Positions 2,024 to 45,800 of a stretch of 58,229 nucleotides of DNA are shown here, one piece after another. Under the pieces are notes generated by a model, which made no database searches, had not been told where the DNA came from, and saw only the letters and a program-made list of their open reading frames with translations. A program made the position numbers and the translations under genes. The number at the start of each line of letters is the position of its first letter. Position 1 is the first letter of the stretch. The stretch is from a virus (lineage: Duplodnaviria; Caudoviricetes), in the IMG/VR virus record IMGVR_UViG_3300043434_000302, positions 1 through 58,229 of that record, one strand, 5' to 3'.

Positions 2024-4096
2024 TTAATACTCAATTATCACAACGCCAGCGGCCCCATCGCCACCGGTGCCACTTGAAGTATAAATACGCGACCCGCCGC
2101 CGCCACCGTATAATCCGCCGTCGGTGCCGAGTGTAGACATTGCGGGTGCTCCACCGCCAAGTATAGAGTTACCGCCTTGACCCACGCTCCATCCACCATT
2201 AGCGCTTGATTGCGAACCACCTTGACTAGCGCCGCCGCGGATGTTCAAATCCCCGCCACTTCCAACACCGCCAGTGGACCCTTGAAGCGAACCATTGGAT
2301 CGTCCGCCAGCTCCACCAGTTGCAGATATTGTAGTTATGGTCTCCGTGCCAGATGCAAGACTGGACGATCCACCACTCCCTCCGGTAGAAGTATATGCAG
2401 ACCCATTCCCGCCAGAACCAACTGTGACCGTTAATGTATTGCTAGGCGTTAAACCACTTAGAATTTTTATAGCGGCCCCTCCGCCAGCGCCACCCCCACT
2501 AGAGCCAGTGCCGTTTGCGCCGCTTGCGCCGCCGCCGCCACCGACAACAGTTACTTTAATCTTGGTGATGCCAGCAGGAATGGTAAACGTGCCAGATGAT
2601 GTGAATACTTCAATATTGCTAAACCCGCCAGCGGCGGTGGGTGCTGCGCTTGTCCATCCCGTACCATCACTAGTCAGGACGTTACCAGTAGCACCAGCCG
2701 ACGTTAAGCCAGTGCCGCCTTTGTTTGCGGGTATCGTGCCTGTCAGGTCACTCGTTGGGATTGTGGCTGAAGCGGTAAAGGGTGAAGTGCCGTTACCCTT
2801 AACGTAGCCGGTGAGGGTCGACACGCCCGTTCCGCCATCAGATACCTCAAGGGTTCCAGCAGTTGCGCCTCCAGCTCCGCCAGCTTGTGCGAATACGTCC
2901 CAAGTCGTACCGCTGTAAACAAACTGCACGCTGACGCCAGAGATGTCGCAGATAAGGTCGCTGGCATCGCCTTCAATGGTCGAGCCGTTACGCCCAATCG
3001 TCAAGTTATTTGTGGCCCATGATCCTACGCTATCAGTAACAATAACCTGATCGCCCACCGCTGGAGTGGCAGGAAGGGTAACTGTGAAGGATCCGCCGCT
3101 AGTGCTGGTTTGCACACCGTCATTTGCGGAAGCTGTATAGTTAGACGTCTTGACCGTAGTGTATGTTATGCCACCGGCTGCGGGGGGTTGCGATGACCAC
3201 GCCGTGCCATCGCTGGTCAGCACATTCCCAGCAGCGCCAACCGAAGTTATGCCGGTCCCGCCACTTCCTGCAGGCAGGGTACCAGTGACGTTCGTTGTGA
3301 GGCTTACGGTCGAAAGATACCCGCTTGGGTTTGATGCGTTGTAAGGCGTGTATCCAAGCGCCGTTACAATTGACTTGTTTTCCCACAGACTTGTCGATGT
3401 GTTGTAAAACAGGCCATCGTTGTTTGATGGAGTTTGAACCGCCACATCGTGCAACTCATCCATCTCATAGCCGTTTTGGACTTTGACAAATAACTTGCCC
3501 TGCGATGGGTGAGCGTGTTCCACCACAGCCATGTAAACCATGTGGCTTGGGGCATGTGGCTTGGTCGCCGTCAGTGTCCCAGCCGTTGTGGGGCTGAGGT
3601 ATAGTTGCTGCCCATCCGTGTAAGCAGACGTATCGATATTAGTGATGGTTCCGATCAGCGTGACGTTGCCATTGGAATTGTTGGCGATGTTGGCTGTGAC
3701 CAACCCAAGCGTCTGTGCTGACGTTGCATCGCTGGTTGCGATTGCCTTGCTGACAGTGGAAAGTTGACCAGTAGCGCCGCTAATATAGACAGCAGTGCCT
3801 TTTGTAAGCGTTGCGCCAGTGGTGTTACGAACAGGCAAAACAACATTGGATGTTGATCCAGCGACGGCAACAGATAGGTCGATGTTTGTCGTTCCAGTCA
3901 CGGCAATAGAGCCATCAGCCGATCCTATGGTCGGCTTTCCAGTCAGATCTGCATACGCGCCAGTAGTTGCTACGGTAGCGAGGGACGAGGTATCAGCCTT
4001 CGTCCCCAGCTCCGTATTCAGATTCGTGAAGTTTGCATCAACTTCATCGTTGGTAAGAGGCGAGCCTTTTCCAGACCGCGTAACAATAGTAGCCAT
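2024..4096 (-). CDS. Gly-rich tail fibre protein
   Basis: 690 aa; fibre-type N-terminus (TRSGKGSPLTNDEVDANFTNL), two GGTG...GNVLTSDG modules, Gly-rich C-terminus. Confidence 0.75.
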   Translation of the reverse strand: MATIVTRSGKGSPLTNDEVDANFTNLNTELGTKADTSSLATVATTGAYADLTGKPTIGSADGSIAVTGTTNIDLSVAVAGSTSNVVLPVRNTTGATLTKGTAVYISGATGQLSTVSKAIATSDATSAQTLGLVTANIANNSNGNVTLIGTITNIDTSAYTDGQQLYLSPTTAGTLTATKPHAPSHMVYMAVVEHAHPSQGKLFVKVQNGYEMDELHDVAVQTPSNNDGLFYNTSTSLWENKSIVTALGYTPYNASNPSGYLSTVSLTTNVTGTLPAGSGGTGITSVGAAGNVLTSDGTAWSSQPPAAGGITYTTVKTSNYTASANDGVQTSTSGGSFTVTLPATPAVGDQVIVTDSVGSWATNNLTIGRNGSTIEGDASDLICDISGVSVQFVYSGTTWDVFAQAGGAGGATAGTLEVSDGGTGVSTLTGYVKGNGTSPFTASATIPTSDLTGTIPANKGGTGLTSAGATGNVLTSDGTGWTSAAPTAAGGFSNIEVFTSSGTFTIPAGITKIKVTVVGGGGGASGANGTGSSGGGAGGGAAIKILSGLTPSNTLTVTVGSGGNGSAYTSTGGSGGSSSLASGTETITTISATGGAGGRSNGSLQGSTGGVGSGGDLNIRGGASQGGSQSSANGGWSVGQGGNSILGGGAPAMSTLGTDGGLYGGGGGSRIYTSSGTGGDGAAGVVIIEY

Positions 4097-6591: not shown

Positions 6592-7259
6592 TGGGCGGTA
6601 CGCCGTGGTTTCTGAGCTTCCATGCTTTCAAGTAAGCCGCCATCTGCCTGCGACTTGATGCCAAGAGACGTTGTGAACGCCTGATAGTACACAGCGGCGC
6701 GGTTGAGATTGGCGAACTCGCTGTCTTTCTGGTAAGCGCGGTACATCATGTAGTCCATCAGCGCGTTTGCGTAGATGTCGTCAATGCCGATCACTTGCGT
6801 GTCAGTCGTGTAGTTCGAAACAACGATATCAACCGGTGCCATCGCGTAGATGATATCGATCTCGTCGTCAGCAGCAGGCTTAGGGAAGACGTAAAAGTTC
6901 TTCGGGTCTAGCGCGTCGTAGACGTAGTGCTTTATGCCGTCACCGCCCACGGGAGTTTCGTACCACGTCGGAAGCTGGACATCGAGAATGCTGCGGTCGA
7001 CCTTAGTGATTGCTCGACCTTCAGTGTTGCGAAGCACGCTTATCAGGCGAAGTCCGTCTGCAGGCAATGTCTGTTTTGCAGCATTCACACATGTAAACGG
7101 AGCGTTAACTGCCTTCGCATCTGGGCGAAACAGCACGACCTGCCGCTGTGCATCATTAAGGTAGTTCAGCAACTCACTCTGAGTCCAACGAACAAACGTA
7201 GGATCTTGGAGTGTGATGCTAACCCGATTGATTAGATCAACAGCTTTGGTCGTCGCCAT
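6588..7259 (-). CDS. adaptor protein, DUF6682-like
   Basis: LQDP.FVRWT..ELL.YLNDAQ....RPDA and ALMDYMMYRAY.KDSE motifs. Confidence 0.7.
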   Translation of the reverse strand: MATTKAVDLINRVSITLQDPTFVRWTQSELLNYLNDAQRQVVLFRPDAKAVNAPFTCVNAAKQTLPADGLRLISVLRNTEGRAITKVDRSILDVQLPTWYETPVGGDGIKHYVYDALDPKNFYVFPKPAADDEIDIIYAMAPVDIVVSNYTTDTQVIGIDDIYANALMDYMMYRAYQKDSEFANLNRAAVYYQAFTTSLGIKSQADGGLLESMEAQKPRRTAQ

Positions 7260-18464: not shown

Positions 18465-18486
18465 CCGCCGAATTTTTGGGGATGGC
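18459..18486 (+). repeat. 28-bp direct repeat, copy 2 (overlaps the tRNA 3' GCCA)
   Basis: Identical to 18101-18128. Confidence 0.95.
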
Positions 18487-18559
18487 GAAGGTGGCAGGAT
18501 TCGAACCTGCGCTCGCGGTTTTGGAGACCGCTGCTTTAGGCCAGCTAAGCTACACCAAC
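18483..18559 (-). tRNA. tRNA-Trp(CCA)
   Basis: D stem GCTT/AAGC; anticodon arm GCGGT-CTCCAAA-ACCGC; T arm GCAGG-TTCGAAT-CCTGC; G73 and encoded CCA; two U.U pairs in the acceptor stem. Confidence 0.88.
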
Positions 18560-18710: not shown

Positions 18711-18970
18711 GCGAAATTGATCAGGGCCAAGCCTACTGTCACCGCCAACCAGATCACCCGCTCTGCCATCTTGACCGCACCAGACTGATTCGTCGCTGCC
18801 TTCTCGAGCAGCCTCAAACGATCCTCATGATCGTCGATGGCGTCCCTGTGTCCATGCAGGCGTTCATCCACCCGCGACAGAAGCTTCAGCGCATCTGCAA
18901 TGGATTTCATCTCATCTTCTATGCGCCCAAGGCGATGGTCAATTGCTGGCAAATCCACTGCGGTTCTCAC
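18707..18970 (-). CDS. coiled-coil protein with C-terminal TM helix
   Basis: 87 aa; heptad pattern followed by VIWLAVTVGLALINFA. Confidence 0.65.
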   Translation of the reverse strand: MRTAVDLPAIDHRLGRIEDEMKSIADALKLLSRVDERLHGHRDAIDDHEDRLRLLEKAATNQSGAVKMAERVIWLAVTVGLALINFA

Positions 18971-19059
18971 TGGTTAATCACTGCGTCTTCCATATCATCG
19001 AGCGCTCTTTTACGCGAGAACAAACAAAGTTTTTTCGAAACTTTTTCAATACGTTATTC

Positions 19060-19130
19060 GTCATGCCATAAAAAAATACAAAAAAATGTTTGGGGGTGGG
19101 TTGACACATCAAAATACCTTCGACTATTAA
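19060..19130 (+). promoter_or_regulatory. putative strong early promoter with upstream A-tracts
   Basis: TTGACA (19101-06)-N18-TATTAA, with phased A-tracts at about 19070-19086. Confidence 0.6.
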
Positions 19131-19134
19131 CTAG

Positions 19135-19175
19135 GTCGTCGGCAGCGACACAAAACACTGACCCGCTCTTTGACA
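19135..19175 (+). promoter_or_regulatory. rrn-type antitermination leader (boxB-like hairpin + boxA)
   Basis: Hairpin GTCGT-CGGCA-GCGAC, then CGCTCTTTGACA (19164-75), close to boxA TGCTCTTTAACA. Confidence 0.6.
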
Positions 19176-19187
19176 TTGTGAAACGCT

Positions 19188-19223
19188 TGATACCTACGGG
19201 GGCTCCGGTCCCCGCTAGGATCA
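19188..19223 (+). ncRNA. leader hairpin, divergent variant of the repeated junction motif
   Basis: TGAT-A-CCTA-CGGGGGC-TCCG-GTCCCCG-CTAGGATCA; GCTAGGAT matches GCGAGGAT at 6 of... the same position relative to the inner stem, differing at one base. Confidence 0.45.
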
Positions 19224-19272
19224 TCACACCGCAGTCCGCTGCCGTCTGGTGATTTTAGCAAGGAGAAAGTAA

Positions 19273-19491
19273 ATGAATAAACAAGTTCTAATCGACGCCG
19301 TCCGCGATCATGCACTGGCGAACTACAACAGCAACGGCTGGGATTATCTGGTTGAGTGCTGGGAAGACGGAGACATCCTCGAGGTGATCGAGGGTGCCAC
19401 CAGCGAGAAGCAGGCCATCGCCAAGGCCAAGAAAGCTCTCGCACCGCTCGACGAATATCGGAGTGAGGTTCGATCATCCGGCGAGTGGTGA
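19273..19491 (+). CDS. early hypothetical protein
   Basis: 72 aa; AAGGAG RBS. Confidence 0.8.
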   Translation: MNKQVLIDAVRDHALANYNSNGWDYLVECWEDGDILEVIEGATSEKQAIAKAKKALAPLDEYRSEVRSSGEW

Positions 19492-19495
19492 TCCA

Positions 19496-19545
19496 CTGAC
19501 TTCCCCAGACCGTGGGGTTCTGCTCCACGGCGAGGATGAATTCAG
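19496..19545 (+). ncRNA. unrecognised junction hairpin, copy A
   Basis: CTGACTTCCCCAGA-CCGTGGGG/TTCTG/CTCCACGG-CGAGGATGAATTCAG. Confidence 0.75.
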
Positions 19546-19560
19546 CAAAGGAGAAAGTAA

Positions 19561-19743
19561 ATGCGTTACCCAATCATCGATACCACCCGCAGCTACACCG
19601 TCGAGCGCAACGTCTACGGCGACGAGTACGCTGGCTGGACTGTAGTTGAGCACTGCCCAGTACATGGCCTGCAGCCGTGGGAGTTTGTCCACGCAACATA
19701 CGATGAGGCGAAGGACAGTCTGGAAGCGTTCTTCGCGGACTAA
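19561..19743 (+). CDS. early hypothetical protein
   Basis: 60 aa; AAGGAG RBS. Confidence 0.75.
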   Translation: MRYPIIDTTRSYTVERNVYGDEYAGWTVVEHCPVHGLQPWEFVHATYDEAKDSLEAFFAD

Positions 19744-19794
19744 TCATTAACGGGGGGGGCTTCGGCCCCCAATAATCCAAGGAAGGTAATTAAT

Positions 19795-20004
19795 ATGACC
19801 AACATTGAAGCAATTATGCGCACAGCCGATCAATTGATCTTTGCAGCCGATGGCTATGCAGACGACGAAATGGTCTGGTTCGACAACGAACGATGGTTCG
19901 CAGGACGGCTGCGCGAGATGGCCGATGATCTTATCGATGACAACATCGAAAGCTGGGCCGTCTTCCAGCTAAACAAGGCGCACGCCGCTGGCTTCAATTA
20001 CTAA
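19795..20004 (+). CDS. early hypothetical acidic protein
   Basis: 69 aa; GGAAGG RBS. Confidence 0.75.
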   Translation: MTNIEAIMRTADQLIFAADGYADDEMVWFDNERWFAGRLREMADDLIDDNIESWAVFQLNKAHAAGFNY

Positions 20005-20048
20005 CACCACCAGACGGCGGAGCGATCCGCCGCGAGGATGGCGCTAGT
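20000..20048 (+). ncRNA. unrecognised junction hairpin, copy C
   Basis: ACTAACACCACCAGA-CGGCGGA/GCGA/TCCGCCG-CGAGGATGGCGCTAGT; same core, different stems. Confidence 0.7.
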
Positions 20049-20070
20049 GCCAAATACGAAAGGAATGTTT

Positions 20071-20445
20071 ATGTCTTTGAATTGGGATGTCTCGAAGATC
20101 GAGAACAACAAGGAAGTCTGCTTCACAGGTGAGGGCGACAATCGCTGCCTCGATCCCGTGACCAACACGTTGATCTGGTACACGTTGTGCCTTGGCATTG
20201 GCGAGATCAGCGAGAAAACCGTCGATGAGTTCTACATTCGCATGAACCTGTTCGACAGGCTCAGCACCGGACCCATGCACTGGGAGGCTGCAGGCTATCG
20301 CTCGATCACTCTCGAGGAGCTGCGGCAGCACATTGGCCTACACACCAACGTAGGTCGCGGTGAAGCACGCAGCAAATGGTTCAAGCGCAAGGTCGACGGC
20401 GTTGTCCGCGATCTCGAGTATGACCTGCGCAAGCAAGTCGCATAG
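20071..20445 (+). CDS. early hypothetical protein
   Basis: MSLNWDVSKI...; AGGA RBS 6 nt before ATG 20071 (ORF is open from 20038). Confidence 0.8.
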   Translation: MSLNWDVSKIENNKEVCFTGEGDNRCLDPVTNTLIWYTLCLGIGEISEKTVDEFYIRMNLFDRLSTGPMHWEAAGYRSITLEELRQHIGLHTNVGRGEARSKWFKRKVDGVVRDLEYDLRKQVA

Positions 20446-20504
20446 TCGAAACCCCTTCGGGGGTCTGGTACGGACTGACCGCCTGCCACTGATGAGACTG
20501 GTCG
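20443..20504 (+). ncRNA. type II hammerhead ribozyme HH1 (predicted cut after C20465)
   Basis: GTC-GAAA-CCCC/TTCG/GGGG-TC|TGGTA...TGCCA-CTGATGA-GAC; complete catalytic core. Confidence 0.9.
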
Positions 20505-20517
20505 AATGGAGATCAAC

Positions 20518-20691
20518 ATGATTGACGGATTAAAAACATTTTGTGCTGGCTTGGTCGTTCTGATCATTGCCAGCCTCATCATCGTCCAGCCCCGCTACAT
20601 TGGCTATGGCTGCAAGAACGCAGATGTTCCGCTGTTCGCTAAGTACGAAAGCGACTTCCCCACATGTGAGCGGATCGAACCAATTTTCTAA
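20518..20691 (+). CDS. small membrane-anchored early protein
   Basis: N-terminal TM segment and two further Cys; GGAG RBS. Confidence 0.7.
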   Translation: MIDGLKTFCAGLVVLIIASLIIVQPRYIGYGCKNADVPLFAKYESDFPTCERIEPIF

Positions 20692-20703
20692 GGGAGAGCA
20701 CCA

Positions 20704-21033
20704 ATGACACAAGTTATCGATCTTGAACGCTTCGCCACCAAGGGCGAGGTCACTGTAGTGAAACGTCTGGTCCGCATCGTGCTCGAGCGCGGATACATTG
20801 TCAGCATCAATGACGGCGAAGAGTGGACCGTCAAGCTCAGCACTGACCGCAAAGAGATTCTGTCCGCCCTTGGAACCACTGGCGAGGACATCATCCGCCT
20901 TTACAAGGACGGCGAACGGGCCGGATCGATCTGGCTGGTCTACGGCAACGCTGAGGACGGCAGCGAGCTGATCGCGGATCACAGTGACAACGAGGCATGC
21001 CACAGCATCTACGCTGAGGTGTACCCCAACTGA
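20704..21033 (+). CDS. early hypothetical protein
   Basis: 109 aa; GGAG RBS; V..NDGEE...WLVYGN....ELIADHS pattern. Confidence 0.8.
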   Translation: MTQVIDLERFATKGEVTVVKRLVRIVLERGYIVSINDGEEWTVKLSTDRKEILSALGTTGEDIIRLYKDGERAGSIWLVYGNAEDGSELIADHSDNEACHSIYAEVYPN

Positions 21034-21080
21034 CTTCCCCAGACTGCGGTTCTTCGGAGCCGCAGCGAGGATGAATTCAG
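21030..21080 (+). ncRNA. unrecognised junction hairpin, copy B
   Basis: CTGACTTCCCCAGA-CTGCGGTTC/TTCG/GAGCCGCAG-CGAGGATGAATTCAG; flanks identical to copy A, inner stem different. Confidence 0.75.
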
Positions 21081-21094
21081 CAAGGAGAAAGTGA

Positions 21095-21277
21095 ATGACC
21101 GAAGAGAAACTGGATGACTACACCGCCGTCATGATCTGCGAAGGCGTCGAAGATGCGGACTATGACCGCACCGTCGAAGCTTGGCAGTACCTGCATGACA
21201 CTGGCCTTGCCTACCGCCTCCAAGGATGGTTTGGCCGCTACGCTCAGTCGCTGATCGAACAAGGGATCATTGGCTAG
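21095..21277 (+). CDS. early hypothetical protein
   Basis: 60 aa; AWQYL.DTGLA..LQGWFGR.A..LIE.G motif; AAGGAG RBS. Confidence 0.8.
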   Translation: MTEEKLDDYTAVMICEGVEDADYDRTVEAWQYLHDTGLAYRLQGWFGRYAQSLIEQGIIG

Positions 21278-21278
21278 C

Positions 21279-21340
21279 AGTCGAAACGCCTTCGGGCGTC
21301 TGCGATGGGATGGCCTCCCCGCACTGATGAGACAGGCCAT
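21279..21340 (+). ncRNA. type II hammerhead ribozyme HH2 (predicted cut after C21300)
   Basis: GTC-GAAA-CGCC/TTCG/GGCG-TC|TGCG..GGG-ATGGCCT-CCC-CGCA-CTGATGA-GAC-AGGCCAT. Confidence 0.93.
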
Positions 21341-21354
21341 ATATGGAGAATGAC

Positions 21355-21618
21355 ATGGATGATGATGATTATATGGAACTTGGTGGCCTAATCGGCGAGT
21401 ACGGGATTACAAACGTCTTTAGCGCCGCGCTGGCCCATCAAGAGCAGTACTTCGAAGAAAGGCTGGCTGATTTGCTAAAGGCTGCTTCTAATGCCTTAGC
21501 CGATCTTGAAGGCATCATGCCGGAGTTTGAGCCAAGCGGTGATCGCGAGCATCCCGCATGGCAAACCATCACCGATCTTCGAAATGCAATTGAAATGGCG
21601 AAGGCAGGCTTTGAATAG
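21355..21618 (+). CDS. early hypothetical acidic protein flanked by identical ribozymes
   Basis: GGAG 6 nt before ATG 21355; the stop TAG overlaps HH3. Confidence 0.75.
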   Translation: MDDDDYMELGGLIGEYGITNVFSAALAHQEQYFEERLADLLKAASNALADLEGIMPEFEPSGDREHPAWQTITDLRNAIEMAKAGFE

Positions 21619-21678
21619 TCGAAACGCCTTCGGGCGTCTGCGATGGGATGGCCTCCCCGCACTGATGAGACAGGCCAT
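21617..21678 (+). ncRNA. type II hammerhead ribozyme HH3 (predicted cut after C21638)
   Basis: 62/62 identical to HH2. Confidence 0.93.
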
Positions 21679-21694
21679 GTAAGGAACAAGAATA

Positions 21695-22069
21695 ATGAAA
21701 ATCGTGTCTATACATTTTGACGGGGCAACCCGTTTCCAGAAGCCGTATGCCTACCTAACCGACATCGACGATATCAGTGTCGGTGATACCGTTGTCGTGG
21801 ACTCTCCGCATAACGGATTCGCATGCGTGAAGGTTGTAAGCATCGGGGAAACTGCTGAGCAGATCGAGAAGGCCCACAAGTGGATCGTCTGCAAAGTTGA
21901 TACCACATCGTATCTTGAGCGCTTGGAACGCGAAGAAAGGCGTAAGACCGTTATCGCAAAGCTCAAGAAGCTCGAGCAGCACCTTGTCGAAGAGGATCGT
22001 TTCGCGATGCTGGCTAAGCTCAGCCCAGAGGCATCCGCCCTACTCGAGGAGCTCAAAACGCTGAAGTAG
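21695..22069 (+). CDS. early hypothetical protein
   Basis: 124 aa; Y.Y.TD....VGD.VVV...KWIVCKVD followed by a coiled coil; AAGGA RBS. Confidence 0.8.
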   Translation: MKIVSIHFDGATRFQKPYAYLTDIDDISVGDTVVVDSPHNGFACVKVVSIGETAEQIEKAHKWIVCKVDTTSYLERLEREERRKTVIAKLKKLEQHLVEEDRFAMLAKLSPEASALLEELKTLK

Positions 22070-22128
22070 TCGAAACGGGCTCAGGCCCGTCTGGCGGGGT
22101 TGCCTCCCGTCACTGATGAGACAGGCAA
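22067..22128 (+). ncRNA. type II hammerhead ribozyme HH4 (predicted cut after C22091)
   Basis: GTC-GAAA-CGGGC/TCAG/GCCCG-TC|TGGCGGG-GTTGCCT-CCCGTCA-CTGATGA-GAC-AGGCAA. Confidence 0.93.
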
Positions 22129-22139
22129 AGGAGACTGAA

Positions 22140-22220
22140 ATGACTGACAACAAACTGCACGTAGCAATACGCTGCGGCATCTTCGCGATCATCGTGATTG
22201 CCGCCAACATTTGCGCATAA
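22140..22220 (+). CDS. 26-aa hydrophobic peptide
   Basis: AAGGAG RBS directly after HH4; MTDNKLHVAIRCGIFAIIVIAANICA. Confidence 0.55.
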   Translation: MTDNKLHVAIRCGIFAIIVIAANICA

Positions 22221-22223
22221 GCC

Positions 22224-22382
22224 ATGCAGTGGCGCGTGATCCTGATGGCGGATGGCAAAAGCGCTGTCCGCCACGTCAAAGCCAACAGCGCAGCCCTCGC
22301 GAGATGGAACGCTATCGGCGACTACAAACTAGAGACGGGACTAGATGCCACGGTGGCTCACATCGTGCGTACCAACCGTTAA
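22224..22382 (+). CDS. 52-aa hypothetical protein
   Basis: MQWRVILMADGKSAVRHV...; begins 3 nt after the previous stop. Confidence 0.5.
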   Translation: MQWRVILMADGKSAVRHVKANSAALARWNAIGDYKLETGLDATVAHIVRTNR

Positions 22383-22395
22383 TGTATTTATATGC

Positions 22396-22424
22396 TTGAC
22401 GCATAAAACCAGCGTCATTATGGG
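22396..22424 (+). promoter_or_regulatory. putative promoter with overlapping inverted repeat
   Basis: TTGACG-N17-TATGGG; TGACGC-N9-GCGTCA at 22397-22417. Confidence 0.55.
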
Positions 22425-22446
22425 CATTTATAGAAGGGAATCGATT

Positions 22447-23316
22447 ATGAAACAGGACGTTTACGAAACGGTCACCAACAAGGTGCTCGAGATGATGGAG
22501 ACACATGGCGCGAACTGGATCAACCCGTTCGCTCGCAAGGGCAAAGCCCTCCAGCCACACAACATCATCAGCAAGAAGCCATACCGTGGCATCAACCACA
22601 TGATGCTGCTCTGGTCACCATATGAAACGTCTGCTTGGGGAACCTTCAAGCAGTGGAACGAGAAGGACTGCAAAGTCCGCAAGGGTGAGAAGTCCACCCC
22701 CATCGTTTTCTGGCAGTTCATCGAGAAGGAAGACGACAAGGGCCAGAAGGTCACCATCCCTTTCCTTCGTCAGTACTATGCATTCAACGTAGCTCAGGTA
22801 GAGGGTGACTTTGCTGAGCGTCTATTGACCTGTACAGATAATGGTACAGGTGCAGAGGATATCGCGGCGGCTGAGGATTTTTTCCGCCAAATCCCTGCGG
22901 ATGTACATCACACACCAACTGGTCGTGCGTACTACAACCCCATGAACGACTTCATCAGCATGCCAAGCAAGGATGTCTTTGAAGATACGCCGACAAGCAC
23001 TGCGACTGAGAGCTACTACAGCACACTGTCACATGAGCTGACGCACTGGACGGGTCACACGTCACGTCTGGATCGCCTCACCAAGTCGCGCTTCGGTGAC
23101 GAAAGCTATGCACGGGAAGAGCTGGTCGCTGAGATCGGGGCCGCATTGCTGTGCGCCCACCTCGAGATCAGTTCCTCGCCTCGCCCAGATCATGCCCAGT
23201 ACCTCAACGGATGGATGAAGGCGCTGTCAGATCACAAGAAGGAATTCGTATCAGCAGCAGCGGCTGCATCTAAAGCAGTCGATTTCGTAATTGAAGCAGC
23301 AGGAAAGGAAGCCTAA
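22447..23316 (+). CDS. ardC: ArdC-family antirestriction protein (ssDNA-binding + zincin-like domain)
   Basis: YRGIN, WGTFKQW....VRKGEK, YYSTL.HELTHWTGH..RL.R and YAREELVAE motifs. Confidence 0.92.
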   Translation: MKQDVYETVTNKVLEMMETHGANWINPFARKGKALQPHNIISKKPYRGINHMMLLWSPYETSAWGTFKQWNEKDCKVRKGEKSTPIVFWQFIEKEDDKGQKVTIPFLRQYYAFNVAQVEGDFAERLLTCTDNGTGAEDIAAAEDFFRQIPADVHHTPTGRAYYNPMNDFISMPSKDVFEDTPTSTATESYYSTLSHELTHWTGHTSRLDRLTKSRFGDESYAREELVAEIGAALLCAHLEISSSPRPDHAQYLNGWMKALSDHKKEFVSAAAAASKAVDFVIEAAGKEA

Positions 23317-35940: not shown

Positions 35941-36300
35941 TCAAAACCTCCAATCTCTGCGGTCCTTCACCGCTCTTGTTCGTTCGCTTAAAAATGTGAC
36001 GGCAGGGCTAATGCGAAATTTGGAGGTTTCGCACAAGCGAACATTAGCCGGTTCCCGTCGCGATACGGTAGCCGTCACAAGCTGTACATATTTCCGCTTT
36101 TCTTTTTGCGCAAGGGAAAATGTGTTGTCGTCCTATATCTGCTGTGGAGATTTTTTCTACGCAGCTTTATATGCGCCGCGCACAGATGACACATGGCTAA
36201 TCTTTTTCCACATGTTTCGAAACACAGGAATTGACGCAGCGAAATTAGTCTCTATGTTGTGCATCGACACGGCAGTACGTGTTCGCAGAAAGGAATGTAT

Positions 36301-36942
36301 ATGGAGACTGTTTCGAATCCCAAGACGAAGAGCGTCTGGGAAACTCTTTCAGCCATAAACGTCAACGACCACATCGAGAAGAAGAGTGGCTTCTCATATC
36401 TGTCTTGGTCGTGGGCGTGGGCAACATTGATGGATCACTATCCCGACGCTGAATTCTATTTTGAGAATCAGACGGGAGAGCACGGCCTTCTAAACAACGA
36501 TGGCGTCATCCGCTATCCGGATGGAACCGCAGAAGTTCGTTGCGTGTTGACTGTCGACGCCACCACACACACGATGTGGTTGCCGGTGATGGACTACAAG
36601 AACCAAGCCATCAAGAATCCAAACGCACGCGACATCAATGACGCAAAGATGCGTTGCCTCGTGAAGTCAATGTCTCTGTTTGGCCTTGGCCTATACATCT
36701 ACGCTGGTGAAGATTTGCCAGACGCAAACAAGCAGAAGCCTGCTCCTGCAGCAGACCCCGTAGTTGGCCTCGCTGATGAAAAGTCTCAGCTACTTAAGGC
36801 TGTGACTGATGCAGCAACGCTCGATGATCTGAAGGCCGCTTTCACCAAGGCAAGCAAGTACGCACGCAATCGCAATGATGACGTGCTCTTGGCCGAAATC
36901 ACGAAGACCAAGGACGCACGCAAAGCCGCGCTCTCCAAGTAA
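36301..36942 (+). CDS. Sak/DUF1071 single-strand annealing protein
   Basis: EKK....YLSW.WAW...LPVMDYKN......DIN...MRCLVK....GLGLYIYAGEDLP. Confidence 0.88.
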   Translation: METVSNPKTKSVWETLSAINVNDHIEKKSGFSYLSWSWAWATLMDHYPDAEFYFENQTGEHGLLNNDGVIRYPDGTAEVRCVLTVDATTHTMWLPVMDYKNQAIKNPNARDINDAKMRCLVKSMSLFGLGLYIYAGEDLPDANKQKPAPAADPVVGLADEKSQLLKAVTDAATLDDLKAAFTKASKYARNRNDDVLLAEITKTKDARKAALSK

Positions 36943-36953
36943 GGATCTATCGA

Positions 36954-37856
36954 ATGGAACAGAGAAGTGACGAATGGTTTAAGGCGCGTGTAGGCGTCAT
37001 CACCGGAAGCCGTGTTGGCGGAATCCTTGGTGTTAACCCATTCCAGAAGACTGACGATGTGATGCGTGACATGGTTCGTGAGCACTTCGGAGCCGCTCGT
37101 GAATTCACTGGCAACGCCGCCACCAATCACGGTGAGCGCATGGAGCCTGTGGCATTAGCGTTCTACGAGTCCGTGGCTGGCGTCACAGTTACCCAGACTG
37201 GCATCGTTATGCACGATGACTACGGCTGGCTTGGTGCATCACCTGATGGGCTGATCGGTTTTGACGGTGGCTTGGAGATCAAGTGTCCGTTCTGGGCGAA
37301 GCAACCGTATTCGGTGCATGATAAACCAAGTTACTACGCACAGTGCCAACACGTCATGGAGGTGTGTGATCTCAAGTGGATGGATTTCTTCTGCTACATA
37401 CGGGAGGACTTATATCTTCTCGAGCGGCTGGAGCGTCACCCCACTTGGTTCGCCAACAACCTTCCAAAGCTTGAAGCGTTTCGCAAAAAGTACCTCGAAA
37501 TAATCGGGGACGAAACCAAAGCTAAGGCATACCTAGATACGGAGGTCGCTGTCGTATCAAACGTGCGCACTGAGTTGATGTCGGATCTCTTTCTTGAGAT
37601 CAAGGCGAAAGAGGCAGAGATTGCTCCGTTAAAGGATGCATACGAAGCTCTCAAAAAAAAACTGGGCTCTGAGTTCGGTTCTTTCCAGACGGGCCGCATT
37701 ACGGTTCAGAAGGTTGAGAAGAAGGGTGCGGTAGACCATGCCGCTGTTTACAAAACCGTAGACGTTGACGGTCTCTTAGCCGCAAAAGGCAAGTCCATCG
37801 AGGACTTTAGAAAAGAGAACGTCACCAGCTACAACGTGAAAATCATAGAGGACTGA
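36954..37856 (+). CDS. YqaJ/lambda-exonuclease family protein
   Basis: QRSDEWF.AR.G.ITGS, LGASPDG, LEIKCP and YYAQ.Q. Confidence 0.9.
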   Translation: MEQRSDEWFKARVGVITGSRVGGILGVNPFQKTDDVMRDMVREHFGAAREFTGNAATNHGERMEPVALAFYESVAGVTVTQTGIVMHDDYGWLGASPDGLIGFDGGLEIKCPFWAKQPYSVHDKPSYYAQCQHVMEVCDLKWMDFFCYIREDLYLLERLERHPTWFANNLPKLEAFRKKYLEIIGDETKAKAYLDTEVAVVSNVRTELMSDLFLEIKAKEAEIAPLKDAYEALKKKLGSEFGSFQTGRITVQKVEKKGAVDHAAVYKTVDVDGLLAAKGKSIEDFRKENVTSYNVKIIED

Positions 37857-39800: not shown

Positions 39801-39842
39801 ATAAAAAGCCCCCGATCCTTATGTGGTCAGGGGCTTTTTTAT
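39801..39842. terminator. bidirectional intrinsic terminator
   Basis: AAAAAGCCCC...GGGGCTTTTTT between convergent genes. Confidence 0.85.
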
Positions 39843-42800
39843 TAGCGCTTCTCCGCCTCTTCGATGAGGTCGTTGAACTCCGTCATGATGGCGGTGATCT
39901 CGTCGTCAAGCTTCTGCGTCTCTGACGGCTTAGCCCCTTCAAGGATCATCTTGCGACGCTCCCTGCGTAGGTCAGATACGTCACGGTAGTAAGACCCAAC
40001 GGAGTCGATAAGTTCTGCCTTCGGGTTCTCATCAAAGACCTCCGTGGTGTCCTGATCATTCTCTTCCCTAAGCTTGACCGTCTTCTTGAGCTCGTTGACG
40101 GCCTTGACGTTGTCGTAGAACTTGCCTCCTTCAGACGTCTTCCCACCGACTTCCCCATAGAAGCGCCTCACGAAGGCTATGTCGTTTGCTTCTATCTGCT
40201 CGCCACTGGATCCCTTCTCGAGAGTTGCTGTACTGCGGTACAGGAATTGCATGGGTGGCAGAACTTGCTCTACGAAGAACTTGATCTCTTCTGGGGTTGG
40301 TGACATGCCTCCAACCTCATACTCATCGCCGCCAGTGACATAGTTAATGACCTCCGCCGCCCTGCTGTACATGGCGTACATGACGGTGGTATCTCCCCGT
40401 GCGCGGCTCATGCCGGTGGTTGGGTTCAGGTCGTTGAAGTCCTTGTTGTAAATACGACGACCAAGACCATCTTCGTTCATCGCGTATTGGACGAACATAT
40501 CGAAGACTGATGGTGAGACAAACTCAATGAACCCAGCGCCGTAGGCAATTGGGTTGACGGAGTTAATCATGACCTTCGCTGAGCCACCAACAAACTGTCC
40601 GAATGAAAGCTGTCCTCTTGCTGCCTCAACCATGCGCCGACCAATGGCAGGGAACATGTTGTAGAAGTACGGCATTGGGATAGCGACATACTTGTCGGTG
40701 TCTGCGAACAGGCCAAGAGGGATAATGAAGGCGTGGTCCTTCACCCACTCTGGTATGTCGTCCTCGTCGTAACCAGCAGCGGCAAGTGCCAAGCCTTGAA
40801 TGACGCCCAGTCCAACGCCGCCAATCAAGATCTTCTTTCCAGCCTTACCCAGCATGGTCTTAATGTTGCGGTCAGTCGATGCGATAGAAGCGTTGGCAAA
40901 GCCGTACAGAGAATTGATCTCGCGTGTCCATTGGCCCTTCTGGTTGAAGTTCACCGTAATGTTCTTCGCGATCTCCGCCGCCTGCGCGTCTGTCATTCCC
41001 TTGTCGATAGCAATCTTAAAGGTGGCAAGACGTGTGGCATTTTCGAGCGCATCATTCCACGCCGTCACATAATCAACGACGACCTTTGGAGCACTCGTCT
41101 TTCCTGTAGACAACTGCTTGACTGCCTTCTGCAACTCCGCCTCCAGTTTTTCTGGATCGCGGTCGAAGTTCTTGAAAAACGACTCTCGAATAGCGGTGCG
41201 TCCACCGGCCTTCTCGAATCTATCGAACAGGTCAGCAACTTCCTGAGATCCAGCAGGCGTAGGCTCGCCACTATCAGTAGCGCGTATGACTCGCACCAGC
41301 TTCTTTGCATACAAAGGAGCCTTAGCCATGATCTTGAATTGCTCACCGTCCAGCGGCGTGCTGGTTAGGTTGACCATCACACCCCAGATGTCGCGTGTGA
41401 AGTTGACCGGTCCAAATTCTGGCATGTATTGAGTGCGCAACTGCGACCACATGCGCGTAATTCGTCCGACATTATTGATAAATGCTGCAGACGCGCCCTC
41501 GAGTGTTGGTAGATCCTCGTTCTTCAATACTGCAGCGATGTCTGTAGCCATCTTCTCGTCAGGATTAAAGACGATGAACTTGTCCGTTCCATCAACGCGA
41601 GTAGCAAAGACGTTTGGCTGGCGCTTGAAGGCGGTGTCGACGATGGTGTCTACGTTGCCAGTGCGTTTGTTGTACGCCCTCTTCGTTGGCGACTTGAAGA
41701 TGTCGTCAGCAAGATCAGGGTCCATGCCCATCGAAACCAACTGCTTGCGCACTTGATCAAGAGTGGCCGTCGACGGATCGATGACCATCCAGAAAGTCTG
41801 GTCCTTGTTTTCCAGCGCAGCCTGAAACACCGTATTGCCAAGACGGTTTGCCTCAGCGCGATTGATAGCCGCCTCCCGCTGCGTAACGATGTTGGCGATA
41901 ATGCTGCTGACCGGCTTGCTTGAGCCAACCGCTGCCTTCAAGGCTGATCCCTCTACGCTTGCGCCACGAGTGCCGAGTGCATGACCACCATCGACACCTT
42001 CGCGGAACAGAGGGACGTAGAACTTATAAGCATTGCGCAGGTTACGAACCGTCTCCGCTGACTCTATGCCAGAGTCCTGCAGTACTTGCAGCGTTCCGTT
42101 TGTTATAACGTCCAGCTTCTTGGCTACAGTCTCAAGGCGGTTACGCTTGGCGGGAGACAGTGCAGCTAAGTAAGCTTTGGCTGCGGCGTCGTTGATGCCA
42201 GAGCCACCATCTTTGAATGCGTCGTTGCGCTGGCGGATAATAGCGTTGCGCTCTACCGCATGCCGGTTGTGCATGTAGGTTTCTACTTCATTGATAGACA
42301 GCGCTTGTTTGCTGATCTCCTTCAGCACTGGCTGCAGTTCATTGAGGTGGAACTCTTGCGTTGTGTATGCAGCACGACTGCCCATCAACTGCTCAGCGCG
42401 GTCGATGTTTGTCTTATCGTTATAGAAGTCGTCGATGTTCTTTGTAAGCTGCTTAACAGAGCGCGTCCTGTTTACGAGTTTCTCGTACCAGTTAACAAGC
42501 CTTGGGAATCGCTCAGCCATTGGGTCCACGCCAAGAACAGCGGGGCCGGTCTTAAACTTAGGTGCGTTCGGACGGATGCTTGGCTTGGTTGCTTTGCCAC
42601 CAATGTTCAGATTGGCTGGACGGCGGACACCAGAGAAACGAATGCCTTCGCCGCTCATCATCTCACGAATACGGCCAGCGTTTGCATAGTTAAACGGCAC
42701 CGCTTCAGACAAGACGGTATTAGTGTCGCCGCTGTTGTACTGATCACTGCGACCTCCACGTTGCGGGGCAAGCGTGAAGTTGTTCAGATCCTCGAGCTGA

Positions 42801-45800
42801 CCGGCACGCCCATCCTGTCGCCGCAGAATAACTGGAACCTGCTCTATGCCAGCAGCCTTGAACGCAGCCATACGGTGACGGCCTTCATGACCCATCACGC
42901 GACGAGGCTGCTCCTTGCCCGAAGCCATGTAAGGTTCAGCGATCTCAAGGAACAGTGGCTGGTCTACTCGACGCAACTCATCAACATTCAATGTGCGAGC
43001 GCGAGTCTTTTCTGGATCCATCGTTGCGAGGAGATCACGCCCCTTGCTCGACAGGGTAAGACCAAGGAACTGATCTGGAGACATGAAGGTGATCCAAGCC
43101 TTAGTCTTGTTATCATCATCAGGATAGGACAGATCCTGCAGCAGTAGATCGGTACGCTCTGGTGTGTAGACCGCACGATTAGTTCGGCCAGAGTACTGGA
43201 CGTTACCAGCCTTGCTCGATTGAGCTGCTACGGCGTCATCGTACTGGTCGAAGTACTCGCCCTCGCCCTTCGTATAGAAATCGCTGCGTGCAGGATCATG
43301 GTACATGAAGACAACGTCTGGCTCTCCGTTGTTGAAGGCGGAGAACTCAGTCTTGTCCCAGTTATCTGAAGCTGCCTCATCGCTCCATTTGACTCTCGAT
43401 GCGACCTTAAAGCCAGCCGTCGAGTACAGGTAAGGCAGGACAGTGTCGTATGCGTCAAGTCGGCGAGCGCCTAACCAAACCGCCATGCGTGCGAGCGGGA
43501 TAGCAACACCCCTAGCTTCTGATGTCGGATGCTTGAACACCGACACAAGGTCATCGCCCTTAATAGCAAAGCCAGTGAGCCCATCCTCAGTGAGGAACAG
43601 GCGCATGTCGGCGTAATCTTTCTTATCGTAGACGTAGACTGCAGCACCAGCCTTATTGGCCTTCTGCGCTTCAGATATCAGTCGATGGTAAAGCTTGGCG
43701 GAAGCTTGTCCAGCAGTTAGTTCGAGGAACTTTGGAGCATCAACACCCGCCACAGCGAGTGCGTTCTTTACCTTTACTGAGTGGCTGTATGTAGCAACTA
43801 CAGGTGTGCGGCCCTCTATGCTCCGCGCAAGGTTTCCACCAGCTTTTCTGCTGACATGTTCGGATGGTCTTCCAGAAGTTGCTGACCCAGCGCCATCAAG
43901 AATGGGGAATTCTTTATTGAGTCTGGTAACGACTGAATCTTGGATGAAGCGTCTGGCGTCTCTGGGCGCGAATTCATTAGCGGCCCCAGATTGTCCGTTA
44001 GCGTTTTGATTGACGGCTCCTCCGCCCAGAACGCTTCCTGATCCTTGTCCCCGTCCCCCCTTGGGTTGAATGGCGGTACTGATTTGCCCATCTGTAAATC
44101 CTCTTTTCTTGGCAATGCGAACAAACTCGTCGTAGTAGCTGGTTTCGCCAGCACTACCCGCATCGTCTGCGCCCTTACCCTTTTCCCGTACACCAAACTT
44201 CTTAGACCACAGTCGCTTCTCTGGATACCAGAGAACGGCCTGAAGATCAGCATTCGTAATGTTAATACTATCGCCTTGCAAGATCTGCTGCGACTTAGCA
44301 ACAATATCCCGTATCCAAGTGCGCTGCCAATCAGCCTTCGGTGCATCCTTTGTGTCTTCAAAGCTGGCAAGAAGGCGCTGTGCAGCAAGCGCGGTCTCTG
44401 GCTTAACCTTCTCTCCGCTGTCATAGGCGGCGCGGTTAACCTTAAAGTCCTTCTCGAAGGCCTTGGACTCAGCCTGCGCAACCTCAAGCAGCTCTGGTCC
44501 ATATGCGTTTGTCGGACGACCATCATCAGCCAGCGCTTTAGTAAGACGCTCTTCCTGCTGCTGAATAAGCTCAGGATCCGCACCAATAAGGTCACCAGTC
44601 ATGCGGCCCCACGTCCGCATAAACCACATGTCGATGGTTACGGGATCGTAGCGACCATTGAGGTTTGAGTAGAAGCCAAAGCCAATCTTTGGGCCAAGCA
44701 CTGCGCTGCCGTAGACCATCTCTTCGGATGCGCCAGACACATTGCTAAAGCCAGCGGCTCGCAGCTCGCGGACTGTGAACTTGGTGGCAAAGAACTTCGA
44801 GACTGCCTCAGCGCCATACTTTTCAACGATTGAGTTGAAGAGTTTCGCGTTGGAGATAATCGAGGATGCGGCCTTGCCCCAACCTTCGTTCTCAGGGAAC
44901 TTACCATTCTTCTTATAGTGCTCGTACCAGCGCTCAGCAAACACAGCATTGGCATCGACAGATTGATTCTGCGAAGTAATAGCAAGAGCTGCAGTAAAGT
45001 GCAGTTGAGCGCCTACATCAGTAGCGATCTCAGGGTGGATCATGGAGGCGACGGCAGTGGCTTTGCGCATCTCCTCTGTGTACCAGCCAGAAGCGTTTCG
45101 CTTGCCAGAACGAGCCAGCTCAGACTTAACTTCATGGGCTACGGTTTGCGCAAGAAGGTCATCCTTTTGACCGGCTGCAGTAATAGGCCGCCCAAGAATA
45201 GAAAGCGTGCGTTTTTGGATTTCAATCGCAGCTTCAGTGACACCCATCGTCCCTTGCTTAACGTCTGGCTGGGCGAACAGTTCGTCAGCAGAAAGCTTTG
45301 ATGCCTTAATGTTCTTTTTGAACTCGCCTGTGGCGCTGTCTTTCTTGCGCCCAGAGTACTGGATCTGCTGTTCGTCATCTCTGAGCGGAGCAGCCTCAGT
45401 CATGTTCTCCTGAGCCTTGCCGGTGCGGTAGCCCTCAAAGATTTCGGCGACAGACTCAACGCCATTGATGCGGAAGATGTTGCGGAAGCCGCGAAGCATG
45501 TCGCTGATGAAGTCGACAACGCGAATGAAGCTGGCCTTTAGCCCCTTCATGTCAACGCCACGGTCTTTAGCGTCTACGAGAGCACCAAAGGCTACGGCCT
45601 GAGCCTCGAAGCGAGACAGTGGTGTGTCGCCCAAGCTGGCAATGAGGCCGTCATATACACTGCCTTCGCCATCCGTCGTCAGCGTCTTCAGCTTGCGCAG
45701 GATGCTTGGGTCGAGATCGTCAATCCGCATATCGTCGCGGAACGAATTATTAAGAAGCTTGAATGCGTCTGGATCGTAGGCGCGTAGCATGTCCTGAATA

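Follow-up and report, generated by a model that had tools for sequence, protein, structure and literature searches.

A covarying hairpin motif between cistrons of Sphingomonadaceae phages and its possible part in messenger processing

What is a short hairpin doing when it recurs three times between the small genes of a phage, in an array that also holds hammerhead ribozymes? This question is raised by the window, that is, the whole stretch of 58,229 nucleotides of viral DNA analysed here (Caudoviricetes; IMG/VR record IMGVR_UViG_3300043434_000302), in which a first-pass annotation had drawn the hairpin from the letters alone and proposed a small self-cleaving RNA, an RNase III site or a protein-binding operator. 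As set out below, the motif probably acts in cis, as an RNA element within polycistronic phage messages that reaches from a stop codon to just before the next ribosome-binding site, and, as judged from sequence, the long messenger RNA is probably cut or insulated there.

Three copies in the window and their fold

The three copies lie on the + strand at 19496-19545 (copy 1, type A outer stem), 20000-20048 (copy 2, type B outer stem) and 21030-21080 (copy 3, type A), and score 77.7, 68.5 and 77.4 bits, respectively, with a covariance model built from these same three. They share a common hairpin, in which a 12-pair imperfect outer stem (P1) leads through CC/GG pairs to a 3x3 internal loop with RGA facing CGA; next come a bulged A and the inner stem (P2), which varies. 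Just as had been noticed initially, the three copies, read directly, do not differ in CCAGAC or GCGAGGATG, and the pattern CCAGAC-N(8-38)-CGAGGATG finds three matches in the window against a shuffle mean of 0.05, with none of 100 shuffles reaching three. For copy 1, P1 is formed by the pairing of CTGACTTCC to GAATTCAG, followed by the CC/GG pairs, the loop of AGA versus CGA, the bulged A and a P2 of eight pairs with a loop of about 5 nt; here, ORF 19273-19491 stops 5 nt upstream and the next ATG is at 19561. The type B P1 of copy 2 has CTAACACCA paired with GGCGCTAG and contains the stop codon TAA (20002-20004) of the upstream gene, while its P2 has seven pairs and a GCGA loop. Copy 3 has a P2 of nine pairs with a TTCG loop, and its upstream stop codon TGA (21031-21033) is the TGA of CTGA in P1. 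The inner stems are thus fully paired yet different between the copies, and the outer stem covaries as well (CTGA/TCAG twice, CTAA/TAG once), both of which bear out the original description.

Folding energies for copies 1, 2 and 3 are -23.1, -24.4 and -25.8 kcal/mol (z-scores of -2.1, -3.3 and -3.4), and the folds are those drawn previously. However, the reverse strands of the three copies fold equally well or better (-25.4, -33.2 and -29.8), and so the strand is not given by folding alone. An unfiltered run of the three-copy model across the entire window returned the three copies alone at 68-78 bits, and the next-best score (21.7 bits) fell on the reverse strand of copy 2. The repeated structured motif is real. 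A supposed variant at 19188 does correspond to a real 5'-leader hairpin of like outline (19188-19223, + strand; z-score of -2.55 in a fold of 19170-19250), but ordinary pairs replace the internal loop and there is no + strand model match at E ≤ 10; this hairpin resembles the motif in architecture, yet is not a member.

Covariation, database comparison and hosts

Covariance-model searches gathered 82 copies (73 distinct) from related viral contigs and from prophage-like regions of seven Sphingomonadaceae genomes, and across these the structure, conservation, strand, position, modularity and distribution of the motif can be observed directly. Both stems covary, in that 19 of the 21 pairs show compensatory changes among the 73 distinct copies, and 85.7% of the cells are paired versus 66.9% in shuffles, a value that none of 500 shuffles attained, while slid pairing registers leave only 28-44% of cells paired. 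By stem, 79.8% of cells are paired in P1 (12 pairs) and 93.8% in P2 (7-10 pairs), with P2 plus its loop spanning 17-26 nt. P2 is capped by stable tetraloops and its loop sequences vary freely, and in P1 two or three mismatches (C.U or A.C) are fixed. Counted over both stems, wobble-type cells number 61 G.U versus 82 A.C, where those of P2 favour the + strand (45 G.U versus 7 A.C) and those of P1 the other strand (16 versus 75, the latter A.C cells pairing better on the opposite strand); wobble pairs do not settle the strand of the motif.

At the core, G15, A16 and C56 are invariant in the 73 distinct copies, and G57, A58, A61 and U62 are nearly so, with A58 replaced by C in four of the 73 and the bulged A replaced by C in one, plus three further copies. 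The core as first drawn needs small corrections: A and G are equally common as the first loop base, the bulge can be C, and the C and G beside the loop form a base pair that flips to G-C. Pair 13-59 changes from C-G to G-C in two copies, and pair 12-60 is U-A in one copy. Scanning the collection with the bare core pattern gave at least 120 stretches, and among the matches listed none forms a hairpin, the longest end-stem having 5 pairs.

Is this core one of the known classes? A cmscan search against Rfam 15 with lax filters, covering 18900-22400 plus single motif copies, placed no family on the motif at E ≤ 10, whether twister, twister-sister, pistol, hatchet, hairpin, HDV-like or the RAGATH families held in Rfam 15, in keeping with the initial remark that no known ribozyme core fitted. 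By this comparison, the motif represents what appears to be a previously undescribed RNA family, backed by covariation and missing from Rfam (with RAGATH compared as in Rfam 15). Several other identities were considered and rejected. Hammerhead models (clan CL00010) match only at 20444, 21279, 21617 and 22068, and the motif consists of two helices with no three-way junction. Freshwater-2 RNA (RF02980) reached 11.6 bits and an E-value of 8.7 against a gathering score of 49.9, in an alignment that covers a ribosome-binding site and start codon, not the core. As for an intrinsic terminator, no T run follows any copy and the terminator scan was empty, and for a promoter, no promoter-like site lies on the motif. 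Selenocysteine insertion was dismissed as well, the stop codon of type B being TAA and the read-through of copy 3 giving 26 codons into another frame. There is a likeness to kink-turns in the N-G-A found on both strands beside a helix, where sheared G15.A58 and A16.G57 are possible in a shifted register. K-turns are described as having a three-base bulge on one strand, and then tandem G.A/A.G pairs between the C and NC helices (PMC8191799), whereas the motif has one spare base per strand only, and because covariation fixes pairs 13-59 and 12-60, there is no room for the 3b.3n pair of a k-turn.

Turning to hosts, all seven named genomes with strong matches are Sphingomonadaceae (one genome each for 185,579 species was scanned), and the carriers of the motif are freshwater and Sphingomonas-type phages. 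The host genomes searched hold 1-3 motif copies each, all in phage-like regions, and the remaining pattern counts equal the control; by pattern, there is one hairpin-forming match per sphingomonad genome, the other matches being non-hairpin. With the covariance model, five sphingomonad genomes gave 0-3 copies when 150 of about 4500 candidates were scored, with one known copy missed. In being an imperfect palindrome right after stop codons in operons, with conserved bases at the stem foot, the motif recalls REP/BIME elements. REPs, however, number hundreds per host genome, and the 1-3 phage-like copies per genome, against the tens to hundreds required, exclude a genome-wide repeat of this type. 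For the window phage itself, the best cultured phage is just 35% identical in the large terminase, and relatives of this terminase with 41-43% identity occur in two of 301 Sphingomonadaceae genomes, neither of which has a hairpin-forming motif match (pattern counts equal the control).

Position between cistrons and the hammerheads alongside

In all copies examined, the motif is oriented with the sense strand of the flanking genes. Among 44 distinct copies, 35 have the TGA or TAA of a long upstream ORF within P1, and in eight others of the 44 this ORF stops 1-15 nt ahead of the motif. On the other side, the next ribosome-binding site is within about 30 nt downstream, and the next start codon of the window copies is 12-21 nt past the match. 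In type A copies, this ribosome-binding site is free, 4 nt outside P1, which rules out its sequestration as a general rule; the TCAG of the 3' strand continues directly into GGAGG in several of the prophage copies. The genes upstream of the motif are unrelated (capsid genes, a pentapeptide-repeat gene and small genes of no known function), and the 51-nt type B element is near-unchanged across many unrelated contexts. No dedicated partner protein emerged, the commonest family within ±6 kb occurring in 7 of 44 loci, which favours a host factor or autonomy.

The array in the window, which is early and probably anti-defence, has no terminator-like site in a scan of 18900-22500 (3.5 expected), and a long transcript is thus expected. 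Three weak promoter-like sites were found in the same interval, none of them coincident with the motif, and by eye there is also a promoter-like TTGACA with an 18-nt spacer and TATTAA upstream of the array (19113-19142, + strand), which is absent from the consensus-scan list. One slot, between ORF 19561-19743 and ORF 19795-20004, is occupied by a plain G+C hairpin (19755-19770, + strand, read directly) of six pairs and a TTCG loop, without the conserved loop. An arrangement of a promoter and then ORFs each trailed by an imperfect palindrome offers an analogy with integron attC sites, which have paired R/L boxes and lie in arrays beside an intI gene and attI; the sole integrase seen in the window is of phage type (38819-39709) and about 17 kb from the array.

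Four type II hammerheads accompany the motif on the + strand. The one at 20444-20506, found by cmscan below the Rfam threshold (26.3 bits versus 37), overlaps with its first bases the stop codon TAG of ORF 20071-20445, and that at 21279-21341 (39.6 bits) lies between ORF 21095-21277 and the next gene, while those at 21617-21679 (39.6 bits) and 22068-22130 (49.1 bits) overlap the stop codons of ORF 21343-21618 and ORF 21695-22069, respectively. Type II hammerheads (RF02276) are like the motif in slot, strand, length (about 50-63 nt), end-closing helix and the marking of break points, but the motif is without the hammerhead core blocks, and two helices stand in place of the three-way junction. 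The first-pass claim that both occupy the same slots is right for the window clade, where the stretches from stop codon to ribosome-binding site are shared with the four hammerheads, as also in seven related loci, but it does not extend to more distant motif loci. There, no hammerhead at the Rfam threshold was found in 17 motif-bearing loci (145 kb), nor any in 39 loci reached via a neighbouring gene family, though nine of these hold the motif. ORF 20704-21033 has homologues in 39 contigs of greater distance, and directly downstream of these lies neither motif nor hammerhead, while those of ORF 20071-20445 are found in three near-identical contigs only.

Candidate functions of the motif

Our preferred reading, put forward tentatively, is that the motif is a processing and stabilising site for a host RNase III-type endonuclease. 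Here, the two stems would stack coaxially (12 plus 8-10 pairs, about two helical turns) on either side of the fixed purine-rich internal loop and bulge, and a host double-strand-specific endonuclease would cut, with the loop and bulge confining cutting to one strand near the loop. The upstream mRNA would then be closed by a protective hairpin, with the downstream mRNA beginning just ahead of a free ribosome-binding site; this would uncouple the neighbouring cistrons, an effect also ascribed to the hammerheads in adjacent slots. That the motif is cut, by which agent and at which point, is what we infer. An ideal RNase III substrate is described as two helical turns (22 bp), and internal loops or bulges as restricting RNase III to one phosphodiester and leaving RNA-protecting 3' hairpins (Nicholson; PMC3867540, PMC1540722). 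In the motif, P1 and P2 around the 3x3 loop likewise give about two turns of coaxial helix, and the internal loop and bulge have an intercistronic place in an array with no terminator-like site. In T7, the early polycistronic RNA of about 7000 nt carries five RNase III signals, and cutting leaves a protective 3' hairpin (PMC3867540, PMC1540722). The R1.1-type signals among these are like the motif in being hairpins of about two turns with a central internal loop, intercistronic and several per operon, but the loop of the motif is invariant across unrelated phages of one host family, and its cleavage is a prediction. In favour of such processing, too, are the restriction to Sphingomonadaceae, the variety of upstream genes, the lack of a dedicated partner protein and the slots shared with hammerheads in this clade. 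RNase III needs little sequence, and the invariance of G15, A16 and C56, like the near-invariance of G57, A58, A61 and U62, is therefore unexplained by RNase III processing. The fixed mismatches of P1, with the 75 A.C cells that favour the opposite strand, also count against it, as does the low number of copies in host genomes (1-3, all phage-like); we know of no host substrate shaped like the motif. T7 RNase III sites share a conserved sequence box that is dispensable for cutting. RNase III is also described as binding a bulge-helix-bulge motif without cutting (PMC1540722), and thus the anatomy seen here also fits an uncut site.

An uncut regulatory hairpin seems to us rather doubtful; it could couple or insulate translation, or be bound by a protein, for instance an RNA-binding dimer encoded by host or phage. 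For coupling, a ribosome stopping at TGA could melt P1, not P2, and so expose the 3' strand together with the ribosome-binding site close by; otherwise, the hairpin could block a 3' exonuclease or hold a repressor. The stop codon sits exactly in the base of P1 in the 35 of 44 copies, and P1 covers the 13 nt between this codon and P2, a distance close to the reach of the entry channel of a ribosome. TCAG adjoining GGAGG in several prophage copies would suit a regulatory role, as would the one array slot (19755-19770) that has a plain hairpin alone, and N-G-A on both loop strands makes a two-fold symmetric site, as would suit a dimer. However, the type A ribosome-binding site is free beyond P1, and hammerheads overlap stop codons equally tightly, so the juxtaposition with the stop codon may only reflect compaction. 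Moreover, no candidate protein co-occurs, and since a plain hairpin suffices for coupling or protection, the fixed loop is unexplained unless protein-bound. Those invariant unpaired bases, beside freely varying stems and a tetraloop-capped P2, typify a small core for catalysis or binding, and accord with a new class of small self-cleaving ribozyme, which sphingomonad phages would use interchangeably with hammerheads to make single-gene messages. We consider this unlikely, and just as unlikely its more specific form, in which the RGA/CGA loop, the bulge and the flanking pairs would be the active site, with P1 and P2 merely holding it together. That the motif shares its slots with type II hammerheads, four of them in the window, and does so again in seven related loci, speaks for it, as does the lack of a partner protein in common and of host copies. 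Hammerhead-context logic is what led to twister sister, pistol and hatchet, though further motifs from such contexts failed to cleave when tested (PMC6765202). Here, only about seven unpaired bases are fixed, with no sign of tertiary contacts and P2 loops that vary freely, and the replacements of A58 and the bulged A by C count against catalysis, as do the distant members without hammerheads (0 in 17 and 0 in 39 loci) and a distribution limited to phages of one bacterial family, unlike that of known classes. The leadzyme, which is artificial, in-vitro-selected and lead-dependent, has a loop in which one strand, opposite G-A, repeats a four-base run found in the 3' strand of the motif. Very small internal-loop self-cleavers of 28-29 nt are reported from human (2026 preprint), and are set beside the motif by description, not by sequence. 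Hammerheads that flank single prophage genes have been proposed to process long transcripts (Perreault et al. 2011; PMC3088659). Cutting at the motif, whether through self-cleavage or through a host enzyme, would mean that one operon is punctuated by two or three unrelated devices (hammerheads, motif and plain hairpin), and the long-open purpose of phage hammerheads would be directly testable in one transcript; if the motif is self-cleaving, a new, very small natural ribozyme class would be added. Either way, it is a compact RNA family whose hosts form a clear group (Sphingomonadaceae), and lysogens that carry it are in culture, among them Sphingomonas laterariae LNB2, Sphingobium sp. YR768 and Sphingomonas parapaucimobilis NBRC 15100.

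A role mainly in DNA, as a crossover repeat for the gain, loss and exchange of small gene cassettes with the RNA structure secondary, we regard as improbable, even though the motif does mark seams where the early, probably anti-defence, gene array is reshuffled. Compared by blastn with six relatives (L121, L125, L126, L127, L128 and L231), the window has homology blocks that start or stop at 19495, 20000, 20442, 21029/21094, 21279, 21613, 22065 and 22139, and the 51-nt type B copy is near-identical where the neighbouring protein is just 41-50% identical. The phage also encodes a Sak-like annealing protein and a RecE-like exonuclease (36259-37856). Still, compensatory changes in 19 of 21 pairs show that selection acts on the fold of a single strand rather than on identity of sequence. 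The homology is interrupted by the variable P2, the orientation always matches the genes, and break points fall equally at the hammerheads, themselves RNA elements, as they would at any repeat. A similar picture is known from T4-type phages, where PeSL cassettes, short repeats between small non-essential genes, bound indels and replacements and are shuffled (Arbiol et al. 2010; PMC2839356). Indel break points between related phages likewise fall at the motif, but a PeSL is a promoter plus a terminator stem-loop, and the motif coincides with neither a promoter-like nor a terminator-like site. Motif and hammerhead repeats thus mark, as a by-product, the break points of cassette gain and loss between related phages. 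Joints with 18-30 nt on the shorter side, in contigs from four runs that are labelled RNA but may be DNA, were left out of the evidence. In one metagenome contig, 21277 is joined to 21616 with 100 nt on that side.

Architecture and covariation of the hairpin

The first-pass annotation had described a three-copy RNA motif, and every described feature was found when the sequence was read at 19496-19545, 20000-20048 and 21030-21080 on the plus strand. Here, the two conserved blocks flanking the hairpin have three occurrences where chance predicts 0.05, and none of 100 shuffles got to three. The three copies fold as drawn (z-scores between -2.1 and -3.4), folding of the opposite strands is equally good or better, and an unfiltered search of the whole genome with a three-copy covariance model gave only these copies at 68-78 bits, the runner-up being at 21.7 bits. 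As for the proposed variant at 19188, its outline matches the motif, but ordinary pairs stand in place of the loop and the model does not score it.

Based on 82 matches, 73 of them distinct, the outer stem (P1) has 12 pairs, with 79.8% of cells paired and C.U or A.C mismatches at two or three fixed places. Stacked above P1 are C12-G60 and C13-G59, which we regard as true pairs because they are replaced by U-A in one copy and by G-C in two. Next is an internal loop of R14 G15 A16 opposite C56 G57 A58, its closing pair being C-G (56 copies) or G-C (17), and then an inner stem (P2) that with its loop spans 17-26 nt and commonly ends in TTCG or a GNRA-type loop, while A61 bulges between G60 and U62. 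Among the 73 distinct copies, G15, A16 and C56 show no variation, G57 (72/73), A58 (69/73, C in four), A61 (72/73) and U62 (68/73) are near-fixed, and R14 is divided between A (36) and G (37). In line with the earlier claim that both stems covary, compensatory two-sided changes are present in 19 of the 21 pairs; moreover, 85.7% of cells are paired, versus 66.9% in shuffles (none of 500 reaching that level) and 28-44% when the registers are slid. Since each loop strand has N-G-A adjoining a helix, two cross-strand G.A pairs are possible and the loop has two-fold symmetry. A kink-turn, defined in the available text of PMC8191799 by a three-base bulge, was rejected, as the motif has one spare base per strand.

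Several smaller features were noticed in the motif alignment (A5). The rare C58 always accompanies A14 (4/4) and never G14 (0/37), numbers too small to call, and columns 14 and 58 close as G-C in no copy. Wobbles are lopsided, with 45 G.U and 7 A.C cells in P2 and 16 G.U and 75 A.C in P1, the P1 skew implying that P1 either would pair better on the other strand or has A.C oppositions in set positions. The fixed 3' block (19530-19538, 20032-20040 and 21065-21073) contains a Shine-Dalgarno-like GAGG run with an AUG immediately after it, both enclosed by the stem, and could serve as a standby or decoy site after P1 melting; in copy 2, whose P1 is of the second kind (type B), this AUG shares its frame with the gene that follows (ORF 20038-20445), though with no usable spacing. 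Degenerate look-alikes of the 3' half, scoring 10-20 bits, also lie in the 5' leaders of the small-gene array (19213-19260, and 3674-3723 of the compared locus L130), immediately before the first ribosome-binding site.

Distribution, novelty and gene context

At gathering scores, the only Rfam 15 hits within the window are one tRNA and three hammerheads; at E<=10 a fourth hammerhead is added and no Rfam family falls on the motif, in agreement with the earlier view that its core matches no known ribozyme. With the laxest filters and single copies, the top match was freshwater-2 (11.6 bits, threshold 49.9), aligned at 21047-21097 only through the ribosome-binding site and start that both have in common (AAGGAGAAA..AAUG); freshwater-2 may itself be a further intercistronic element, carried by related freshwater phages. 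No description of the motif was found in the full-text literature on RAGATH, hammerheads in phage intergenic regions and new ribozyme classes, subscription papers and supplements lying outside this scope. The family is apparently new to description.

Loci fetched with the ArdC-like neighbour protein gave 29 more matches (E<=1.3e-11, all on the gene strand), confined to the 9 of 80 loci with ArdC identity of at least 67%, and pattern scans with a second covariance model added copies in unrelated viral contigs. Because the search patterns themselves imposed the core, two relaxed control scans were run. With the 5' loop free, all 19 new hairpin-forming matches had GGA there and six stemless matches were random; with the 3' loop free, the four new hairpin-forming matches had CAA, CGC, CGA (with a C bulge) and CGC. 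A pattern-free route, with loci fetched by protein only, yielded nine more copies that keep the core, the bulge being A or C. Among 185,579 species (one genome each), seven genomes gave strong matches, each from the family Sphingomonadaceae (Sphingomonas laterariae, S. parapaucimobilis, Sphingomonas sp. Leaf32, Sphingobium jiangsuense, Sphingobium sp. YR768, a Sphingobium MAG and an Allosphingosinicella MAG), besides two weaker, doubtful ones. The host genomes searched carry just 1-3 copies each, which rules out a REP-type repeat. The motif is a real, well-supported RNA family of Sphingomonadaceae-type phages. In the Sphingobium sp. YR768 locus (L282), a DUF3800-VII RNA (RF02967, 59.7 bits) lies at 6830-6916 on the minus strand, in a prophage-like region 1.2-2 kb from two motif copies on the same strand.

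Of 44 distinct copies examined, 35 have the foot of P1 formed by the TGA or TAA that terminates a long ORF; in eight the upstream ORF ends 1-15 nt before the motif, and one truncated copy has no upstream ORF end. When the stop is TAA, its partner base switches as well (G-C to A-U at pair 5-68, eight copies), and CTGA is retained even where the actual stop is further upstream. Downstream, the following gene begins no more than about 30 nt away (in the window, 12-21 nt past the match). The motif follows genes of unrelated kinds (capsid genes in two cases, genes for a pentapeptide-repeat protein and a clamp-like protein, and small unknowns), and no protein family occurs within 6 kb in more than 7 of the 44 loci.

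The window is a complete virus record (58,229 bp) encoding a portal or adaptor protein, large and small terminase, tail fibres, internal virion protein, primase-helicase, ribonucleotide reductase, Sak-like annealing protein, RecE-like exonuclease, HNH endonuclease and integrase; neither an RNA polymerase nor a ribonuclease was found among 25 ORFs scanned. Its large terminase is only 35% identical to that of the nearest cultured phage, and pieces of 19100-22400 are present in freshwater, lake and drinking-water metagenome runs from several studies. The array of plus-strand small genes (19273 to ~22340) lies upstream of the ArdC-like gene (22345-23316), is preceded by a promoter-like TTGACA-18-TATTAA at 19113 (by eye), and showed no terminator-like site in a scan of 18900-22500. 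The ArdC-like gene, together with a 3101-aa polyvalent protein (39842-49147, minus strand; sole Pfam match LPD38, residues 2796-2993), suggests that the array serves anti-defence or host takeover. Directly upstream of the array, on the minus strand, is a tRNA gene (18486-18559, 57.1 bits) that by BLAST is 78-90% identical to tRNA-Trp genes from phages of Caulobacter and Streptomyces.

Hammerheads and mosaic seams

The proposal that the motif occupies the same slots as hammerheads holds in the window, where the order is gene, motif, gene, plain hairpin, gene, motif, gene, hammerhead, two genes, motif, gene, hammerhead, gene, hammerhead, gene, hammerhead. The fourth type II hammerhead (20444-20506) scores 26.3 bits, below the Rfam threshold of 37, but aligns with a full core, is placed like the other three and has near copies in two compared loci (L125 ~3524-3585 and L127 ~1948-2010). 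Hammerheads and motif copies overlap stop codons equally tightly, and within the clade each gene family retains its own 3' element. Outside the clade the motif is present without hammerheads, which are in none of 17 loci and none of 39 (nine with the motif), so the shared-slot argument is only local.

In blastn against six relatives, block ends coincide with the edges of motif copies and hammerheads, and one metagenome contig bridges two hammerheads (100 nt on the shorter side). The type B copy is nearly letter-identical across contigs while the adjoining protein is just 41-50% identical. Its summed depth in metagenome contigs is very high (628 and 151), unlike sequence begins on either side of it (at 20001 and 20053), and it resembles a cassette boundary that has spread recently. 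Together with the ribosome-binding site downstream (19999-20053), this copy also recurs near-identically in many otherwise unrelated contexts (compared loci L121, L125, L128, L256, L294, L341, L345-L348 and L361). As the phage carries Sak and RecE-like genes, the repeats are plausible crossover points, a role shown for PeSLs of T4-type phages (available text of PMC2839356), which they resemble in lying at mosaic break points.

Candidate functions

Compared with the processing signals in the available text of PMC3867540 and PMC1540722, the motif is best, if tentatively, read as a predicted RNase III-type processing and stabilising signal in a phage operon, with putative cleavage. This reading would suit its size of two helical turns, its central loop and bulge, its intercistronic place in an operon without a terminator, its independence of any gene or partner protein and its restriction to one host family. 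It leaves the invariant loop unexplained, which keeps three others alive. That the hairpin stays uncut and has a putative protein-binding or coupling role is doubtful. A new minimal self-cleaver seems unlikely: ribozymes of 28-29 nt with the same outline, reported in a 2026 preprint, make it less far-fetched, but other motifs found by the hammerhead-context method failed to cleave in tests, according to the available text of PMC6765202. A DNA recombination module would account for homology blocks breaking at motif and hammerhead edges, but is highly improbable as the main role, since compensatory change reflects selection on the folded strand and hammerheads mark seams likewise; hence, we read the break-point role as a by-product.
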